Notes under the pieces: model-generated
Databases searched by the model: none
Told to the model about the DNA's origin: nothing
What the model saw: the letters and a program-made list of their open reading frames with translations, nothing else
Sequence record: MH550421
From: Enterobacteria phage T6
Strand: one strand, 5' to 3'
Length of the DNA: 64,000 nt
Program-made: the position numbers and the translations under genes
Shown here: one piece after another, positions 1,797 to 29,985 of the stretch
How the letters are laid out: each line of letters starts with the position of its first letter
How positions within the stretch are numbered: position 1 is the first letter of the stretch

Positions 1797-2812
1797 TGTG
1801 TTGCCTCTACATATAGCTGATTTGCATATTGAATAAGTGCTTCACGGTCAGAATCAGTGATGTCTGGAATTGCATTAATATACTCTTCCATTAATGTCTG
1901 AAGCGATTGAACTTCAACTTCTTCACTATCATCTGACTCGACAGAGTTATCAATCTTTGACACAACTCGTAATGAATGCACAACTTTCTCTAGTTCAGAT
2001 TCGAACTTCGTCAGATTTTTGTCTATTTCAGTTACTATAACACGTACTGATAGATTTGTAAAATCTTTATAGTCAATTTTTCCTTTAAATGGATAATGAA
2101 TTCTACGATGCCAGGTAGTATTGTTTGGAATAAATTCCATTCGTTCTGTTTCTGTATCAAACATCCAGAACCCACGAGGGTCATTCTCGTCACCGGCAGT
2201 TAGTGTCCATGGTGTCCCAATATATCTGACGTTAGCAGCCTCAGAAATAGTATGGAAGTGACCAGACCACACTTCTTTATAAGTCTTAAGGAAATCAGGT
2301 TCAAGACCGTGAGATTTCATTCCTTTATAAAAATAAAATCCATTCAATTCCCAGTGACCAACACAAAAAGAAGCAGATGAAGTTTTGATATGCTCAAGAA
2401 TTTCACCAGTATTTTCTTCGCACATCCAAGGAATTAAATCAATCAAACACCCGTCAAAATCTACTGTAGTAGGCTTATCATATACTTTAACATTAGGATA
2501 TTTAGCCAAAAGCTCAGTAGAGGCATTTGGAGTTAAAGTATTTTTAAAGTGCATATCATGGTTTCCTACAACAGTATGTAGGGTAATACCAGCATCATCA
2601 AGCATTTGAACTATTTCACGAGCAAACTCCATAGTTTTATGCGTGATTGCTTTTCGCACATCAAAAATATCGCCGTATTGAATCCAGGTAGTAATTCCAT
2701 TTTTCTTAGAATATTCTATCGCTTGCTTAATTCCATCCAGCTGAATGGATTGAACCCACTCATCATCGGCTTTAACGCCTAAATGCCAATCACCTAAATT
2801 TAAAATTTTCAT
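1793..2812 (-). CDS. 47: Recombination nuclease subunit gp47 (SbcD/Mre11-like)
   Basis: 339 aa; calcineurin-like phosphoesterase motifs LGDWHLG and VVGNHDMHF; length and sequence match T4 gp47 from memory. Confidence 0.92.
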   Translation of the reverse strand: MKILNLGDWHLGVKADDEWVQSIQLDGIKQAIEYSKKNGITTWIQYGDIFDVRKAITHKTMEFAREIVQMLDDAGITLHTVVGNHDMHFKNTLTPNASTELLAKYPNVKVYDKPTTVDFDGCLIDLIPWMCEENTGEILEHIKTSSASFCVGHWELNGFYFYKGMKSHGLEPDFLKTYKEVWSGHFHTISEAANVRYIGTPWTLTAGDENDPRGFWMFDTETERMEFIPNNTTWHRRIHYPFKGKIDYKDFTNLSVRVIVTEIDKNLTKFESELEKVVHSLRVVSKIDNSVESDDSEEVEVQSLQTLMEEYINAIPDITDSDREALIQYANQLYVEATQ

Positions 2813-2972
2813 ATATCAAGAACCGTCATTGAAATGCAAAATAAAATTATTGAAATAAATCCATCTAGAGTACTAAAGAACCCAATCCAACATGCTCTAG
2901 TGAATAGATAAAATGCAAGAAAAAGTATCACATATCCAAGAAATATCATTATATCAAACTCCGTATAAAGCT

Positions 2973-2990
2973 AAAGGGCCGAAGCCCTTT
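2973..2990 (-). terminator. GC hairpin with tetraloop (GGGC-UUCG-GCCC on the transcript) at the a-gt 3' end
   Basis: Inverted repeat aaagggccgaagcccttt overlapping the a-gt stop codon; only a weak U tract follows. Confidence 0.4.
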
Positions 2991-4191
2991 ATTTTGTAAT
3001 AATGTCAAACTGTTCTTTAAAGCAGAAGCTTGAATCTTGATGTTGATACAAAAATTCATATGCTTTTTCTCGCTCACGGTCATAAAGAGCTCGGTCAGAT
3101 GACAGTTCTTTAATACGTTCAAATGTTGATTCCATGTCATTTTCATCAAACCAAATGATACCGCTATCATGCGAGGTCAAAGGAGTATTATCAACACGGA
3201 ATTTTAAATTTTCGCCAGTAGATTTCCAAAATGCCGGAATTGTTCCACATGCACCAAGCTCGAGATGAGTATATTCGAGTGAGCGTTGTAAGTATTTCTG
3301 GTTAAGTTTACTCAACTGATATCCAAAGCCAGATTTACTCATTCGTTCAAGCATTTCACTATTAATATAACAATCTAGGATTTGTGCCGGTTGATTTGGC
3401 GCGAGATTCATTTTATCAATCTCACGATTACCGTAATATTCATACGGAATACCTTTTTCCTTAATTGCAATAAAAGCAGGGGAACGTTCAAGACCTTCCA
3501 TTACAGTGGATTTACCAGCAGGTTTTAAGAATTTTTCATGAAAATCAAACATCTGATAAAAACCTTTCCATGTAGTCGTACGACCAATCCAACGGTTGAT
3601 ATTCATGTTAATTTCAGAAACATCTTTCCAGTAGGTTGATCGAACCTTCGCAATATCCATAGGAGGCTGAAAGTTATATACTGTCGGTGCTTCTTCAATA
3701 TCATCAAACAGAGAAACAGTTTCTGGATACCATTCTTTCATCAGAACTTTATTAAAATCACCATTATCAGAATGGCTAAAAATAACATCAGCTCGACGAA
3801 CAGTTTCTTCTAATCCCAAATTTCGACGCAAAGAAAGAACAGAATGATCATGCTGATAAACTACAACACGAATAGAAGGTTTAATATTATCTAAAAGTTT
3901 TTTATAGTTATTAATCGTGGCTTCTTGAACGGAAGTAGCAGGAACAGAATTAATAATTAGAATATCACAATCATTAATCAGTTTAAGTGCTTTATCGTAT
4001 TCTTTAGCTAAAATAACTGGAATTGAAAATGATTTGTGGTCATGAGAACTTGTACGAGTAAATGATTTATCTTTAGCATAAACCAAAGTTACTTCATGAC
4101 CATTTTTAATAAACCAATCACGTTGCTCAAGAGAAAATTTAGTTACACCACAGCCTTCAAGACCTCGAGCCATAAAAATACATACTTTCAT
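2989..4191 (-). CDS. agt: DNA alpha-glucosyltransferase
   Basis: 400 aa; translation MKVCIFMARGLEGCGVTKFSLEQRDWFIKNGHEV... is near-identical to T4 alpha-glucosyltransferase as remembered. Confidence 0.95.
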   Translation of the reverse strand: MKVCIFMARGLEGCGVTKFSLEQRDWFIKNGHEVTLVYAKDKSFTRTSSHDHKSFSIPVILAKEYDKALKLINDCDILIINSVPATSVQEATINNYKKLLDNIKPSIRVVVYQHDHSVLSLRRNLGLEETVRRADVIFSHSDNGDFNKVLMKEWYPETVSLFDDIEEAPTVYNFQPPMDIAKVRSTYWKDVSEINMNINRWIGRTTTWKGFYQMFDFHEKFLKPAGKSTVMEGLERSPAFIAIKEKGIPYEYYGNREIDKMNLAPNQPAQILDCYINSEMLERMSKSGFGYQLSKLNQKYLQRSLEYTHLELGACGTIPAFWKSTGENLKFRVDNTPLTSHDSGIIWFDENDMESTFERIKELSSDRALYDREREKAYEFLYQHQDSSFCFKEQFDIITK

Positions 4192-4242
4192 TTAATATCC
4201 TCTTTGTTTTGGTTTATTTTACCAAAAATTTATAAAGCAATA

Positions 4243-7043: not shown

Positions 7044-7173
7044 AAATCATACGTTTATGTAACTTGAGTATAAGATAGTAAACATCAAAACCATTTACAT
7101 AAGTAACACGAACGACATTACCATTCACGAGATAATACTGTCCCTTTTTAATTTCTTTATCAATCATAACCAT
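6991..7173 (-). CDS. Hypothetical small protein
   Basis: 60 aa ORF directly downstream of the early promoter at 7204-7233. Confidence 0.4.
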   Translation of the reverse strand: MVMIDKEIKKGQYYLVNGNVVRVTYVNGFDVYYLILKLHKRMICDRAVFSSVAKEIKLHG

Positions 7174-7203
7174 ATCAATTCCTCAAAGGCAATTCATATG
7201 TTA

Positions 7204-7233
7204 ATAATACCATAGTTTGAACTTGTTGTAAAC
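7204..7233 (-). promoter_or_regulatory. T4-type early (sigma70) promoter
   Basis: Minus strand reads GTTTACA - 17 nt - TATTAT, preceded by the A/T-rich UP-like element aaaatatttttcacaaagttg. Confidence 0.6.
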
Positions 7234-7300
7234 AACTTTGTGAAAAATATTTTAGGGAATGATAAGAAAGGAACGATAGCTTAGAATGGTAATATACAGA

Positions 7301-7328
7301 ATGTGAGAAAGAAGGGCCCAGAGGGCCC
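7301..7328 (-). terminator. Intrinsic terminator (GGGCCC-UCUG-GGCCC hairpin plus U-rich tract)
   Basis: Inverted repeat gggcccagagggccc just downstream of the nrdH stop; the minus transcript follows with UUCUUUCUC. Confidence 0.6.
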
Positions 7329-7331
7329 GTC

Positions 7332-7640
7332 TTAATCTTCTATGATATCTCTATCATATCCAAGTGAAATGAGAGTTTCTTTGAAGTGTTTAATGTTCTT
7401 TTGTCTAGAATCATTAATGAAAATGACTGGATAACGAATGTTAAGAGATGTGAATCCAGCGCGTTTAGCAAGAGATACAATCAGCGGACGATCATACTCA
7501 ATCTTACCATTATTTGTAAGAACTTTATAGAAAGTAAAAGGAGCATTAAGCTCCTTTAGAAGTTTTGTAACTGATTGACATCCAGGACAACGACCTACTT
7601 CATCTGGAATTCCATAGACTTCAATCTTATTTTGTTTCAC
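7332..7640 (-). CDS. nrdH: Glutaredoxin-like protein NrdH
   Basis: 102 aa with CPGC redox motif; position upstream of nrdG as in T4. Confidence 0.8.
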   Translation of the reverse strand: MKQNKIEVYGIPDEVGRCPGCQSVTKLLKELNAPFTFYKVLTNNGKIEYDRPLIVSLAKRAGFTSLNIRYPVIFINDSRQKNIKHFKETLISLGYDRDIIED

Positions 7641-7642
7641 AA

Positions 7643-7855
7643 CTATTCCTTACTAAGAGCAGCATTCAGCTTGTTAGTAATTTTATCCAGACGCTCATTG
7701 AACTCACTAGAAGATAAGCCCTTTTCTGGAGAAATTAAACTAATCACGAAAAATATAGCAATAAATGGAATAAGGAAAATAGCTCCAACTGCCATAAATA
7801 GAAAGAATGTTACAGTTGTAAGAAAATCAGCTAAACCTTTACGAAATTTATACAT
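7643..7855 (-). CDS. Hypothetical small membrane protein
   Basis: 70 aa ORF with one long hydrophobic segment (FLTTVTFFLFMAVGAIFLIPFIAIFFVISLI). Confidence 0.5.
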   Translation of the reverse strand: MYKFRKGLADFLTTVTFFLFMAVGAIFLIPFIAIFFVISLISPEKGLSSSEFNERLDKITNKLNAALSKE

Positions 7856-26558: not shown

Positions 26559-26728
26559 ATATTAATTTCCAAAAGTTTTAAAATAATTCGCTTTTGCTTA
26601 AATATTTCCACAGTTAAATGATCAGTATCTTTTTGACCAATTCCAATGGCAAAACCTTTATTAACAGCGAGTTCAATTAAATTATCAAGTTCACGTAACA
26701 CTTCATATTGTAACTCAGAACTATTCAT
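26555..26728 (-). CDS. Hypothetical small protein (57 aa, below the ORF-track cutoff)
   Basis: Hand-translated MNSSELQYEVLRELDNLIELAVNKGFAIGIGQKDTDHLTVEIFKQKRIILKLLEINI; ATGA overlaps on both sides. Confidence 0.35.
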   Translation of the reverse strand: MNSSELQYEVLRELDNLIELAVNKGFAIGIGQKDTDHLTVEIFKQKRIILKLLEINI

Positions 26729-26952
26729 TTCGGTTTACCTTCTTTAACGAAATCTGGATAAGGATAAAATCCCGAATAAAATCCTTCACCTTTATGATTG
26801 ATACATCCTTTATTAGAACAATAGCACCAATAATCGAAATCACAAGCCATTTCATCGTTGCATAAAGCAAAAACAACCGGCCATTTACACTTTTCACAAT
26901 GGGCATTTTTAAGAATACTAGTTTGGCTCATAACCATGTAACCTTTAAGCAA
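26725..26952 (-). CDS. Hypothetical Cys-rich small protein
   Basis: 75 aa; 9 Cys including CEKC...C...C.C..C. Confidence 0.5.
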   Translation of the reverse strand: MLKGYMVMSQTSILKNAHCEKCKWPVVFALCNDEMACDFDYWCYCSNKGCINHKGEGFYSGFYPYPDFVKEGKPK

Positions 26953-27155
26953 TATTCTTCTACATGCTGTTTACGACCTTTCTTATCAATAAAGGTATAT
27001 TCAACGAATGTTCCAATGTAGTCTTTATCTACATCATGTGGACTATTAATTGGACATTTAGTACGGCAAATGCGTTCCCATTGACGAATAATTACTGCCT
27101 TATTCTTTGGGTCATATGGATGTGGATAATGTATATTCATAATAATGGTTCCCAA
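26928..27155 (-). CDS. Hypothetical protein
   Basis: 75 aa ORF. Confidence 0.5.
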   Translation of the reverse strand: MGTIIMNIHYPHPYDPKNKAVIIRQWERICRTKCPINSPHDVDKDYIGTFVEYTFIDKKGRKQHVEEYCLKVTWL

Positions 27156-27604
27156 TCAACAATCACAATTTCTAATTTAGAGGAATATGTATCTAAAATC
27201 CCCTCAATAATATCCCAGTTCCCTTTACCTATGCCTGCACCAATCCTAGGCATATAGATTGTAGGTTTAATCAGTTTATTTTCACCAAACTCATTTAATT
27301 CTAACATACAATTCATTAAAGCGGAATACTCAAAATTTGGCCCTGGTTGAAATTGAGTATAAAGATTAAAGCAGTAAGCTTTATGAGTCCTAAAGTATTT
27401 TTCATAGACTGAATAAGAACCAAGTTTAGTTACATCACCCCATTCAGTCTGTAATTTATCAGCTTCCAAAATTTTAGGGAAAGCTTTGGTTAATTGACCT
27501 GCGACTCCAGCTTTCATCGTGTGAAAACAATTACATCCATGCGCAATATTTTTACCTTCAGCGAAAAGGGCGACAATATCGCCCTTGATATATTTTACAA
27601 TCAT
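27137..27604 (-). CDS. Macro-domain protein (ADP-ribose binding/processing fold)
   Basis: 155 aa; GDIVALFAEGKNIAHGCNCFHTMKAGVAGQL resembles the macro-domain N-x6-G-G-V signature. Confidence 0.55.
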   Translation of the reverse strand: MIVKYIKGDIVALFAEGKNIAHGCNCFHTMKAGVAGQLTKAFPKILEADKLQTEWGDVTKLGSYSVYEKYFRTHKAYCFNLYTQFQPGPNFEYSALMNCMLELNEFGENKLIKPTIYMPRIGAGIGKGNWDIIEGILDTYSSKLEIVIVDWEPLL

Positions 27605-27948
27605 CTAGTACTCAATCCTCGATTATAAGAATCTACCAAACGGTCAACCATTGAATGACAAGCGGCTTTATCTTTCTCCTCCGCAACTGAGCATTCTAAG
27701 GTATTCCACTTTTTAGCATATCGTTTTAACAATGTATCGTTTTTGTATCTGCTTGATTTATCTCTTTCTCCGTCTTTATATGCATATATTAATTTCTGTG
27801 CAAATTCAGCTTGGCATGCTTTATTTTTCCCACAATAATCTGCCGCAGTGCGGTTTACATATTCTCTAATTTCAGTATATGATGTATCTGCTGACGCAGA
27901 AGCAGAAAATGAAATTAATCCTATACATAAAACCAAAATTTTAGTCAT
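27601..27948 (-). CDS. Hypothetical secreted protein
   Basis: 115 aa with signal peptide MTKILVLCIGLISFSASASA; 4 Cys. Confidence 0.55.
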   Translation of the reverse strand: MTKILVLCIGLISFSASASADTSYTEIREYVNRTAADYCGKNKACQAEFAQKLIYAYKDGERDKSSRYKNDTLLKRYAKKWNTLECSVAEEKDKAACHSMVDRLVDSYNRGLSTR

Positions 27949-28486
27949 TTACTATTTCCAAAAGTTTATTATTTTTAAGGTAATTAGCCTTTTCTAGGAC
28001 TTCAGAAGCATATTTAGAACCAGCTTTAACATTCCATCCCGAATTATAAGAGGATATTGCTTTTCTTATATCGCCCTTATGTATATTTAACCAATAAGAA
28101 AGTTCAATGTACGCCCAGGAAGCTGAATTGGATCGTTTATTCAACATTCTTTTTATTTCAGCATCGGTCATATTATAACCAAGTTCCTTAACTCTCGCTC
28201 GCATAGTAGGCAAATAATTTTGGAACATTCCGTAGGCGTGATGCTTTGGTTTAGATTTTAAATTAACTCCGCCAGAGCTTTCTTGCCATATAATGGCTGC
28301 CATTATATGGCCTAATCCGCTCTTGTGGATGTTTTTGTGTGTTTTATATTTTCCATCCTTAGAAAATTGTTCCCCGAATTGATACGCGTAACGCATGTTA
28401 TCGAGTTGGACATTACTGAAAGTATGCTCGGAGCTATGTGCCATCATTGAAATGGCCAATAGACCAGCGAGTAGTGCTTTTCTCAT
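27941..28486 (-). CDS. Secreted lytic-transglycosylase-like (SLT domain) protein
   Basis: 181 aa; signal peptide MRKALLAGLLAISMMAHS; SLT-like motifs IIWQESSGG, YGMFQ, SYNSG. Confidence 0.6.
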   Translation of the reverse strand: MRKALLAGLLAISMMAHSSEHTFSNVQLDNMRYAYQFGEQFSKDGKYKTHKNIHKSGLGHIMAAIIWQESSGGVNLKSKPKHHAYGMFQNYLPTMRARVKELGYNMTDAEIKRMLNKRSNSASWAYIELSYWLNIHKGDIRKAISSYNSGWNVKAGSKYASEVLEKANYLKNNKLLEIVND

Positions 28487-28493
28487 GCTTACC

Positions 28494-28955
28494 TCATTGA
28501 GTTTTAATTACTGCTTTAGAAGCCTTTCCTGGTAAACGACGACTGTTGATAATTGCCATCCTACATTGAAGTGACGGGTCTTTGAACTTCTCATTAGGTT
28601 TACAAACTGTAAATCCAAGCCAAAGATTTCCATCTGTGATTTCTAAACGTCCAGGACGATATTCAACCCCATCAATAAAATCCTCGTCAATGTCAGGACG
28701 CGGTGGCATACTCAGGAATTCATTAACTTCTAAAACATGGTCTTTTATTTTATGGAATAATTCAAAAACGTATGTCTCATCAATCTCCCGTTGAATTGCA
28801 CGATCAAGAAGATGCTGAGAATATTTTAGATGAAACGATGAGACTCCTGCTGCTTTTGATGCCTCACGAATCTCATTGTTAATTTGACGAAACTCCGACT
28901 CAAAGTGGCGACGAAGCTTATTTCGACGGATAAAAACTTCTGTATTGATAGTCAT
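28494..28955 (-). CDS. regB: Endoribonuclease RegB
   Basis: 153 aa; MTINTEVFIRRNKLRRHFESEF... matches T4 RegB from memory. Confidence 0.8.
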   Translation of the reverse strand: MTINTEVFIRRNKLRRHFESEFRQINNEIREASKAAGVSSFHLKYSQHLLDRAIQREIDETYVFELFHKIKDHVLEVNEFLSMPPRPDIDEDFIDGVEYRPGRLEITDGNLWLGFTVCKPNEKFKDPSLQCRMAIINSRRLPGKASKAVIKTQ

Positions 28956-28982
28956 GTTGTTCTCCTCTTAACTGATAGAAAA

Positions 28983-29012
28983 ATTATACCACAGTCAAGA
29001 GGAAAAGTAAAC
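28983..29012 (-). promoter_or_regulatory. T4-type early promoter (upstream of regB)
   Basis: Minus strand GTTTACT - 17 nt - TATAAT in the e/regB intergenic region. Confidence 0.65.
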
Positions 29013-29016
29013 AACT

Positions 29017-29985
<969 letters not shown>

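Follow-up and report, generated by a model that had tools for sequence, protein, structure and literature searches.

What does the vs.1-vs gene pair of phage T6 do, and does the annotation of Vs as a 'valyl-tRNA synthetase modifier' fit the protein that the gene encodes? The DNA analysed here, referred to as the window, is a stretch of 64,000 nucleotides from sequence record MH550421 that is 99.9% identical to T6 and about 98% identical to T4. The initial annotation had described two adjacent ORFs for signal-peptide proteins, and both are present on the minus strand exactly at the positions that it gave (Table 1). It left them unnamed; the longer ORF is gene vs.1 and the shorter is gene vs, whose product is classically known as the valyl-tRNA synthetase (ValRS) modifier. 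T6 Vs is 100% identical to T4 ORF 60.9, T6 Vs.1 is about 98-99% identical to the product of T4 vs.1 (ORF 61.4), and the gene order regB-vs.1-vs-tk.4 is identical in the two phages. Relatives of Vs.1 are found in 2013 phage records and relatives of Vs in 795, plus 385 via a query with a divergent subfamily. Because of the T6/T4 identity, the Pfam SLT match of Vs.1 and these numerous phage homologues, both ORFs are real genes and not chance ORFs. That vs.1 resembles SLT enzymes is not a new finding; Nolan et al. 2006 noted it with reference to the 2003 T4 genome review. The literature searched, which excluded that review and Muller and Marchin 1975, contained neither a signal peptide on Vs nor experiments on Vs.1.

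Table 1. Features of the vs.1-vs locus, with positions in the window.
Feature	Position	Strand	Details
vs.1 CDS	27941..28486	(-)	181 aa; precursor, predicted secreted SLT-type lytic transglycosylase
Vs.1 signal peptide	28433..28486	(-)	Residues 1-18 (MRKALLAGLLAISMMAHS); predicted cleavage after A-H-S
SLT motif I, WQESSGG	28268..28288	(-)	Residues 67-73; predicted catalytic Glu69-Ser70; inside the Pfam SLT match
SLT motif II, GMFQ	28220..28231	(-)	Residues 86-89
SLT motif III, SYNSG	28037..28051	(-)	Residues 146-150
vs CDS	27601..27948	(-)	115 aa; annotated 'valyl-tRNA synthetase modifier'; predicted exported four-helix, four-cysteine protein
Vs signal peptide	27889..27948	(-)	Residues 1-20 (MTKILVLCIGLISFSASASA); predicted cleavage after A-S-A
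Vs lipobox clusters			LSGC, LLGC, LVGC or LFGC, residues 13-17; clusters P0092, P0103, P0104, P0105, P0107, P0108, P0109
Vs lipobox loci			L043, L044, L046, L047, L063
vs.1 stop/vs start overlap	27941..27948	(-)	8 nt (AAATGACTAA); translational coupling
vs stop/tk.4 start overlap	27601..27604	(-)	ATGA; sequence read
tk.4 macro-domain gene	27137..27604	(-)	Downstream of vs; Pfam Macro
regB endoribonuclease gene	28494..28955	(-)	Immediately upstream of vs.1; Pfam REGB_T4, E 8e-69
Early-promoter-like site	28983..29011	(-)	TTTACT, 17 nt, TG-TATAAT; between e and regB; consensus scan and sequence read
Endolysin gene e	29017..29511		Pfam Phage_lysozyme

In silico, the data support an SLT/GH23 fold for Vs.1, together with a signal peptide and catalytic motifs that are intact. 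Pfam SLT (PF01464) matches residues 61-154 with 26.9 bits (gathering cutoff 21.3; E 3.9e-6), and the match is also present in 23 of the 24 Vs.1 homologues. All three motifs to which the initial annotation had drawn attention are present. Among the 24 aligned sequences (alignment A1), motif I has invariant W67, E69 and G73 and at least 90% conservation at S70, while G86, F88 and Q89 of motif II, Y147, N148 and G150 of motif III and the downstream Tyr, Y159, are all invariant. The definitions of motifs II (G-L/M-M/F-Q) and III (A/S-Y-N-x-G) and of the downstream Tyr are those of the family classification. In Vs.1 relatives with 30-40% identity, motif I reads WEESS, WQETS, WRESR or LQESE. The AlphaFold model of Vs.1 (pLDDT 88) has the lysozyme-like all-helical fold, and its top matches in Foldseek are all GH23/SLT enzymes, in agreement with the SLT fold postulated earlier. 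Single-sequence and profile searches against PDB chains gave nothing significant, a weak goose-type lysozyme being the sole PDB profile match. With only 13-21% identity to Slt70, MltC, MltD, MltE and MltF (family-1 SLT/GH23), Vs.1 is too divergent for sequence matches to PDB chains, and the SLT assignment thus rests on the Pfam profile and the fold. NCBIfam offered no useful model.

We called signal peptides in both proteins from the n/h/c layout, its conservation in divergent homologues and the low-confidence, unstructured N-termini of the AlphaFold models. The N-terminus of Vs.1 consists of MRK, ALLAGLLAISMMA and AHS, with cleavage predicted before the following Ser, and it has the features of a Sec (type I) signal peptide, i.e. 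a positive n-region, a hydrophobic h-region of 7-15 residues and small residues at -3 and -1. Residues 1-20 have a pLDDT below 55, and the most hydrophobic 9-residue window begins at residue 4 in Vs.1 as well as in Vs. Among the 24 homologues, the N-terminal hydrophobicity of Vs.1 is kept though the sequence varies; the layout persists in relatives down to 30% identity and is also present in those from Aeromonas, Acinetobacter, Ackermannviridae and Felixounavirus phages. A signal peptide on the 181-aa protein had been claimed in the initial annotation, and these comparisons bear it out in silico.

The N-terminus of Vs has a similar design with MTK, ILVLCIGLISF and SASASA, followed by the Asp that would begin a mature protein of 95 aa and 11.0 kDa. 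In 57 of the 60 clusters of the Vs family, one to three Lys/Arg residues are followed by an uncharged stretch of 10-21 residues, as in a signal peptide, and about seven clusters have the lipobox L-x-G-C of a lipoprotein (type II) signal peptide, which is absent from T6 Vs. Exactly four Cys residues are found beyond residue 25, again in 57 of 60 clusters, and these four are among only nine residues that are invariant across both Vs subfamilies. The smaller protein had indeed been described as secreted and Cys-containing, and the sequences of the family agree with this. AlphaFold predicts residues 21-113 to form a four-helix bundle (pLDDT > 90), in which the two cysteines of each pair sit on either side of a helix-helix turn; the likely disulfides would be Cys39-Cys45 and Cys86-Cys97. 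His-tagged Vs with the tag at the N-terminus has been published as insoluble in the cytoplasm. Vs matches phrog_1256 (PHROG 1256; E 1.7e-39), and every Vs homologue carries a precomputed match to PF26829 (ValRS_modifier). In single-sequence and profile searches, PDB chains gave nothing significant for Vs. A Vs profile matched only 8 of 1.84 billion representatives, all in the same phage family, and a broader profile retrieved the 60 clusters, with PF26829 throughout. Because the matches are confined to PF26829, there are no cellular relatives from which a function could be borrowed. To meet ValRS in vivo, Vs would have to be cytoplasmic; in silico, its conserved signal peptide, the lipoboxes of some variants and the four invariant Cys residues speak for another location. 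Judged by its sequence, Vs does not fit the annotation as a cytoplasmic ValRS modifier.

In a locus survey anchored on Vs.1 in IMG/VR, a Vs ORF follows the Vs.1 gene directly in 51 of 55 independent phage loci, and in each of these 51 the distance from the vs.1 stop codon to the vs start is between -8 and +3 nt. The same coupling is found in phage S16, in Klebsiella and Acinetobacter phages and on two metagenomic contigs, and TAATG junctions are found in distant phages. Vs.1-like genes without an adjacent Vs are present in Aeromonas phage Aes508, Ackermannviridae and Felixounavirus. With a mean identity to T6 of 46% for Vs and 69% for Vs.1, Vs diverges faster. The adjacency of two predicted secreted proteins holds as first described, but not their independence: the genes make up one conserved, translationally coupled module. 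On the flanks of the pair, the ribosome-binding site of regB contains GGAG, and tk.4 has been named adfM, an anti-DarTG2 factor (2025 preprint). The early-promoter-like site upstream of regB is likely the start of a regB-vs.1-vs-tk.4 transcript, whose genes have early RNA in T4 omics data; because sites in our promoter and terminator consensus scan were no more numerous than in shuffled sequence, we use it as a lead only and not as proof.

Published T4 data bear on when the pair is made and when it matters. In T4 omics data, vs.1 and vs have early RNA and middle protein timing, and both proteins are detected in infected cells. The early expression postulated in the initial annotation therefore holds at the RNA level, but protein timing is middle; overall, its observation is confirmed and its interpretation is partly supported. 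In the HIDEN-SEQ supplement, the comparison of LB versus M9 gives a log2FC of -2.19 for vs (adjusted p 0), -0.87 for vs.1 (p 0.0055, adjusted 0.155) and -0.07 for tk.4, and vs is the strongest hit in minimal medium in these T4 transposon data. In LB, mean insertion counts are 26.6 for vs and 22.6 for vs.1, compared to 179-767 for regB, tk.3, tk.4, vs.3 and vs.4. The depletion of vs and vs.1 relative to their neighbours recurs in other sheets of the dataset. The vs defect exceeds the vs.1 defect in M9 and equals it in LB. The depletion of vs.1 may reflect polarity on vs. Because vs.1 insertions are depleted too, the transposon data do not favour Vs as a detoxifying inhibitor over Vs as a helper.

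We suggest that vs.1 and vs probably form an early-transcribed periplasmic module composed of the lytic transglycosylase Vs.1 and its exported partner Vs. In this model, regB-vs.1-vs-tk.4 would be transcribed early as a unit, and vs.1 and vs would be translated as a coupled pair. The Sec signal peptide of Vs.1 would be cleaved, releasing a small soluble SLT/GH23 lytic transglycosylase to the periplasm, where Glu69, acting as the single acid/base, would cut the MurNAc-GlcNAc bond to leave a 1,6-anhydro-MurNAc end. Vs would also be exported, being soluble and periplasmic in most phages and a lipoprotein in one subclade, and mature Vs would be a four-helix bundle stapled by two disulfides. In the periplasm, Vs would act on or with Vs.1, restraining or directing its activity; by analogy with periplasmic inhibitors and immunity proteins, which bind other lysozyme-fold enzymes, binding to Vs.1 is the most likely mode. 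Together, the two proteins would adjust the wall of the infected cell, a task that would be dispensable in rich medium and important in minimal medium.

More tentatively, the 'ValRS modifier' could be a disulfide-bonded periplasmic regulator or inhibitor of Vs.1, with ValRS modification being secondary. Mature periplasmic Vs would then meet ValRS after cell breakage, or the vs gene assignment would be wrong, and the function of vs.1-vs would be the control of cell-wall cleavage during infection, which would explain the minimal-medium defect. The classical genetics and biochemistry of vs, carried out by Muller and Marchin and dated to 1975 and 1977, reportedly gave the vs product a cytoplasmic partner, valyl-tRNA synthetase. 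Under the export model, these data would have to be accounted for by a second activity or by an association after breakage.

Among the alternatives, the classical view survives best, although we consider it rather unlikely. According to this view, Vs is a cytoplasmic peptide, tau, that binds host ValRS; its hydrophobic N-terminus is unused or only partly used for export, and, with the same low probability, its adjacency to vs.1 is mere tight gene packing in T4 early operons. The annotation is found in hundreds of records, in PHROG 1256 and in Pfam PF26829, and a role in aminoacylation would be in keeping with the minimal-medium defect seen when vs is knocked out. The vs mutants are said to have been selected on a valS(ts) relA host, and tau was reportedly about 10 kDa, a size that we count for this view because it is close to that of mature Vs. 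However, a product of 10-11 kDa implies removal of the signal peptide, which occurs only on export. Similarly, the spread of signal peptides over the family and the lipoboxes of one subclade argue for export, and the four Cys residues, which are the best conserved, fit periplasmic disulfides and not the reducing cytoplasm. ValRS is expected to be highly conserved among these hosts, and the faster divergence of Vs therefore counts against ValRS as its partner. Moreover, phages of Acinetobacter, Proteus and Pseudomonas also carry the Vs family, always attached to vs.1, and ORF 60.9 carried no gene name in the original sequence record, implying that it was called vs only later.

It is less likely still that Vs.1 is a hydrolytic muramidase resembling goose-type lysozyme, or a non-catalytic peptidoglycan-binding protein. 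In the fold search, g-type lysozymes, a GH23 chitinase and muramidases score like true lytic transglycosylases, and the only PDB profile match, weak as it is, points in the same direction. By contrast, the SLT-typical Glu-Ser, G-x-x-Q and Y-N-x-G motifs are invariant and Pfam SLT scores above threshold in nearly all members (23/24), and a non-catalytic protein would not be expected to keep the catalytic Glu so strictly.

The periplasmic location predicted for both proteins and their early transcripts would also suit a pair that protects the infected cell from later phage, by superinfection exclusion or resistance to lysis from without. The initial annotation had proposed envelope remodelling or superinfection exclusion as possible roles. 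T4 Spackle is a small periplasmic helical lysozyme inhibitor, and in one version of this idea Vs would similarly inhibit incoming tail lysozymes. That T4 already has such a protein, listed as 'sp spackle periplasmic protein' in the HIDEN-SEQ supplement, we count in favour of this idea. Nonetheless, we regard both the protective role and its Spackle-like version as improbable; the fitness defect arises in single-phage competition and is medium-dependent, and because Vs is strictly coupled to an enzyme of its own phage, that enzyme, Vs.1, is the likelier partner.

Finally, it is highly improbable that Vs.1 helps with lysis late in infection in the manner of a signal-anchor-release (SAR) endolysin. 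In favour of this reading, some records label the Felixounavirus relatives 'putative lysin', and the gene lies between rIIB and a spanin region in VpaE1 and near rI in Acinetobacter phage DLP2. Against it, vs.1 RNA is early, endolysin e is encoded nearby in the same phage, and vs.1, in which insertions hit 46 of 52 TA sites, is non-essential; the hydrophobic stretch of 13 residues is too short to span a membrane (~18-20) and is followed by an A-H-S/S cleavage motif. Two further candidates were rejected. A virion enzyme does not fit the predicted signal peptide and the early RNA. A relationship to endolysin e was discarded as well, since e belongs to Pfam Phage_lysozyme and the sequences are unrelated, in line with the distinction that had been drawn between the two.

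In itself, the finding is ordinary, i.e. two named T-even genes, one of which has a published SLT similarity. The point of interest is the mismatch between the ValRS annotation and the hallmarks of export and disulfide formation over some 60 clusters, in a protein that is regularly co-translated with a predicted peptidoglycan-cleaving enzyme. The literature has yet to assign a role to the modification of ValRS by Vs, which has been studied since the 1960s. If Vs is exported, an old annotation that has been copied into over a thousand phage genomes will have to be corrected, and the reported minimal-medium phenotype of vs would find its explanation in the cell envelope. If the module that we propose exists, an enzyme with an exported partner would be widespread in T4-like phages of Enterobacteria, Acinetobacter, Proteus and Pseudomonas.

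The T4 vs.1 and vs genes are the same genes as the T6 pair; only the interpretation changes here, in that they are regarded as one exported module and the ValRS annotation is questioned. Slt70 and the Mlt enzymes are encoded by Gram-negative bacteria, while Vs.1 is encoded by a virulent phage and, unlike them, is a bare domain of 163 residues without lipid anchor, superhelical domain or LysM domains. Small secreted transglycosylases that are specialised for secretion systems include VirB1, IpgF and P19. EtgA similarly serves a secretion machine (T3SS), whereas no trans-envelope assembly that depends on Vs.1 is known, and Vs, the candidate partner of Vs.1, is unrelated to EscI. Among phage proteins, T7 gp16, phiKZ gp144 and phi6 P5 share GH23/SLT-like folds with Vs.1, and PHROG matches of Vs.1 include lytic tail and internal virion proteins (E 3e-6 to 3e-3). 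However, these three proteins lack a signal peptide and are part of the virion or serve as endolysins, while Vs.1 is stand-alone, predicted to be secreted and made from early transcripts.

For Vs, the closest parallels in design are the inhibitors in the Spackle/gp5, PliG/PliC/MliC/Ivy and T6SS Tse3-Tsi3 systems. These are small exported proteins, as predicted for Vs; some inhibitor and immunity protein families have soluble as well as lipoprotein forms, like the predicted forms of Vs; and in effector-immunity pairs the inhibitor gene directly follows the enzyme gene, as vs follows vs.1. In our searches, Vs had no sequence or fold similarity to Spackle, PliG/PliC/MliC/Ivy or Tsi3. On the enzyme side, the fold matches of Vs.1 include g-type lysozyme, which forms a complex with PliG, and Tse3, the partner of Tsi3. 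Unlike in these inhibitor systems, Vs and Vs.1 would share one compartment of the cell that produces them, where Vs would probably bind an enzyme encoded by its own phage.

The region at 27100-29600 of the window is 99.9% identical to two T6 records and approximately 98% identical to T4. The coordinates and lengths that the initial annotation assigned to two adjacent ORFs of 181 and 115 aa are correct, and both are on the minus strand. In T4 records, the 181-aa ORF is called vs.1 and the 115-aa ORF is called vs, the latter described as a "valyl-tRNA synthetase modifier". Vs is 100% identical to ORF 60.9 in the original 1986 T4 sequence record, in which ORF 60.9 and ORF 61.4 (181 aa) carry no gene name.

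Gene map of the vs region in the window
Gene	Position	Strand	Description
e	29017-29511	-	T4-type lysozyme; Pfam Phage_lysozyme
regB	28494-28955	-	
vs.1	27941-28486	-	181-aa ORF
vs	27601-27948	-	115-aa ORF
tk.4	27137-27604	-	macro domain
tk	beyond tk.4 in minus-strand gene order	-	

In the T6 records AP018814 and NC_054907, 'NN' replaces the single T at 28299 of the window (approximately position 4200 of the NC_054907 locus). This disrupts vs.1, so that its only annotation there is a 231-nt CDS to which the label 'rI antiholin' was transferred; by contrast, the ORF is intact in the window. Several small ORFs of the NC_054907 locus (2456-3041 and 7078-7680) carry implausible similarity-transferred labels, and 'rI antiholin', 'tail assembly protein' and the second 'site-specific RNA endonuclease' are not to be trusted. 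In the window, regB adjoins e directly (28955-29017), while T4 has vs.3-vs.8 and denV after regB; tblastn searches with T4 DenV, Vs.3, Vs.4, Vs.6 and Vs.8 gave no match anywhere in the 64 kb. The lack of a denV match is in line with the long-standing observation that the T4 v (denV) function is absent from T2 and T6. The regB Shine-Dalgarno region (28957-28968, AAGAGGAGAA) includes GGAG, i.e. the RegB cleavage motif, in keeping with the known autoregulation of regB; the ribosome-binding site of vs.1 is GAGGT, without GGAG. Between tk.2 and tk.3, a 75-aa cysteine-rich ORF (26725-26952, minus strand; CEKC...C...C..C.C...C), which does not appear in this part of the T4T map, may encode a small zinc-binding protein. 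On a metagenomic contig with a lipoprotein-type Vs (L003), the gene at the vs.4 position (2800-3081) has an Acb2/Tad1 hairpin domain (PF24729), an anti-CBASS gene family absent from the T6 window.

Based on profile matches and structural modelling, Vs.1 is a putative SLT-type (GH23) enzyme. It matches Pfam SLT with 26.9 bits (curated threshold 21.3), as do 23 of 24 homologues with identities as low as 44%. The SLT motifs pointed out in the initial annotation are present, and W67, E69 (followed by S70), G86, F88, Q89, Y147, N148, G150 and Y159 are invariant in the alignment of the 24 homologues. The same motifs are kept at only 30-40% identity in relatives from Aeromonas, Acinetobacter, Ackermannviridae and Felixounavirus phages. 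An alignment-based AlphaFold model of Vs.1 is confident (pLDDT 88), and its top Foldseek matches are all GH23/SLT enzymes, in support of the SLT fold. Plain sequence searches against PDB chains found nothing, which makes Vs.1 a divergent superfamily member, and endolysin e, from which it had been proposed to be distinct, shows no meaningful similarity to it. The SLT similarity is not new and both genes were already known: Nolan et al. 2006 reported it for vs.1 of six T4-like phages, crediting the 2003 T4 genome review with the same point, and several GenBank records carry the label "SLT domain-containing protein".

Both proteins are predicted to be exported. Vs.1 begins with MRK, a 13-residue hydrophobic stretch and A-H-S|S, and Vs with MTK, ILVLCIGLISF and SASASA|D, in agreement with the signal peptide and the secreted, Cys-containing protein of the initial annotation. 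Within each family, the N-terminal layout is retained despite free variation in sequence, and the N-terminal segments are unstructured and of low confidence in the AlphaFold models. The case for Vs export is strong because this family is open to survey. One to three Lys/Arg followed by an uncharged stretch of 10-21 residues are present in 57 of 60 sequence clusters, the remaining three being truncated or mis-started ORFs; about seven of the 60 have a lipobox instead (LSGC, LLGC, LVGC or LFGC). Exactly four cysteines are present in the mature part in 57/60 clusters, and two subfamilies with a mutual identity of only 25-30% share nine invariant residues, four of which are these cysteines. Mature Vs (95 aa, 11.0 kDa, pI 8.9; precursor 13.1 kDa) is modelled as a four-helix bundle (pLDDT >90) in which Cys39/Cys45 flank the helix 1-helix 2 turn and Cys86/Cys97 the helix 3-helix 4 turn, suggesting disulfide pairing in this order. 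The switch between soluble and lipid-anchored forms and the conserved cysteines are expected of a periplasmic protein and not of one working in the reducing cytoplasm. The insolubility of N-terminally His-tagged Vs expressed in E. coli is a small detail consistent with export.

By gene order, vs.1 and vs form one module that is conserved across T4-like phages. In the window, vs.1 and vs overlap, with the vs start codon 8 nt within vs.1 (AAATGACTAA). Among 55 IMG/VR loci, each encoding a Vs.1 relative, a Vs-family ORF directly follows in 51, and in all 51 it starts from 8 nt inside to 3 nt after the vs.1 stop; the four loci that lack Vs are those with the least similar Vs.1 matches (31-36% identity). 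Salmonella phage S16, Klebsiella Jiaodavirus and Acinetobacter phage DLP2 have this arrangement as well, as do two metagenomic contigs encoding the most divergent Vs proteins, and the junction is often TAATG. In phage JS09 (KF582788.2), an unannotated gap between vs.1 and tk.4 contains a complete Vs homologue (L006 2040-2387; 115 aa, signal peptide, four Cys; HMM E 1.9e-57). Vs.1-like genes without Vs occur in Aeromonas phage Aes508, Ackermannviridae and Felixounavirus, and Vs is joined to Vs.1 in every locus examined. Mean identity to T6 is 46% for Vs and 69% for Vs.1, i.e. Vs diverges faster.

In a T4 multi-omics study, vs and vs.1 are classed as early RNA and middle protein. Thus, both proteins are made, and the early expression proposed in the initial annotation is supported at the RNA level. 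In HIDEN-SEQ, a transposon mapping of T4 (2025 preprint), both genes are non-essential, with 30/32 TA sites hit in vs and 46/52 in vs.1. Of all genes, vs is depleted most strongly in M9-glucose compared with LB, as confirmed by knockout; the preprint describes the role of ValRS (valyl-tRNA synthetase) modification as unknown. In its supplementary table, the log2FC for LB against M9 is -2.19 for vs (adjusted p 0), -0.87 for vs.1 (p 0.0055, adjusted 0.155) and -0.07 for tk.4, the insertion mutants of which have no medium-dependent defect. Mean insertion counts in the LB competition are 26.6 for vs and 22.6 for vs.1 compared to 179 to 767 for regB, tk.3, tk.4, vs.3 and vs.4; this approximately tenfold difference from neighbouring non-essential genes is a shared cost on which the preprint text is silent, and other HIDEN-SEQ sheets have the same depletion pattern. 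Thus, vs and vs.1 have a fitness signature in common that is absent from the neighbouring genes and is not due to polarity on tk.4. Possibly, the vs.1 signal reflects polarity of vs.1 insertions on vs. In the same preprint, tk.4 is the anti-DarTG2 macrodomain gene adfM (T4 orthologue AdfM); it is translationally coupled to vs via an ATGA overlap of the vs stop and tk.4 start.

Taken together, these features make the "ValRS modifier" resemble an exported protein that partners a secreted transglycosylase; this result was unplanned and merits a bench test. This reading conflicts with the textbook annotation. Muller and Marchin (1975, 1977) reportedly described a phage peptide that binds host ValRS. 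A size of approximately 10 kDa has been reported for the peptide, and vs mutants are said to have come from selection on a valS(ts) relA host. Vs could be periplasmic and encounter ValRS only once cells are broken, a fraction of it could be retained in the cytoplasm with a second function, or the vs mutations could have been assigned to the wrong ORF. The purely classical reading, in which Vs is a cytoplasmic ValRS-binding peptide, we consider unlikely: a product of 10-11 kDa does match Vs, but in its mature form and not as precursor, which implies passage through the membrane.

For the exported-partner reading, we infer the following sequence of events. Early transcription would probably start at a promoter-like site just upstream of regB (TTTACT-17-TG-TATAAT, 29011-28983), and Vs would be translated after Vs.1 in one ribosome run. 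Both proteins would be exported by Sec and processed, Vs.1 would cut the glycan strands of the sacculus with Glu69 as its sole acid/base, and Vs, stabilised by two disulfides, would act together with it, most likely by binding Vs.1 and limiting or directing cleavage. The Vs model resembles none of Spackle, PliG, MliC, Tsi3 and EscI, and the likeness to these proteins is, therefore, a functional analogy and not membership of their families. By this analogy, Vs may be to Vs.1 what other periplasmic partners are to lysozyme-fold enzymes, i.e. Spackle to T4 gp5, PliG and MliC to lysozymes, Tsi3 to Tse3, and EscI to EtgA.
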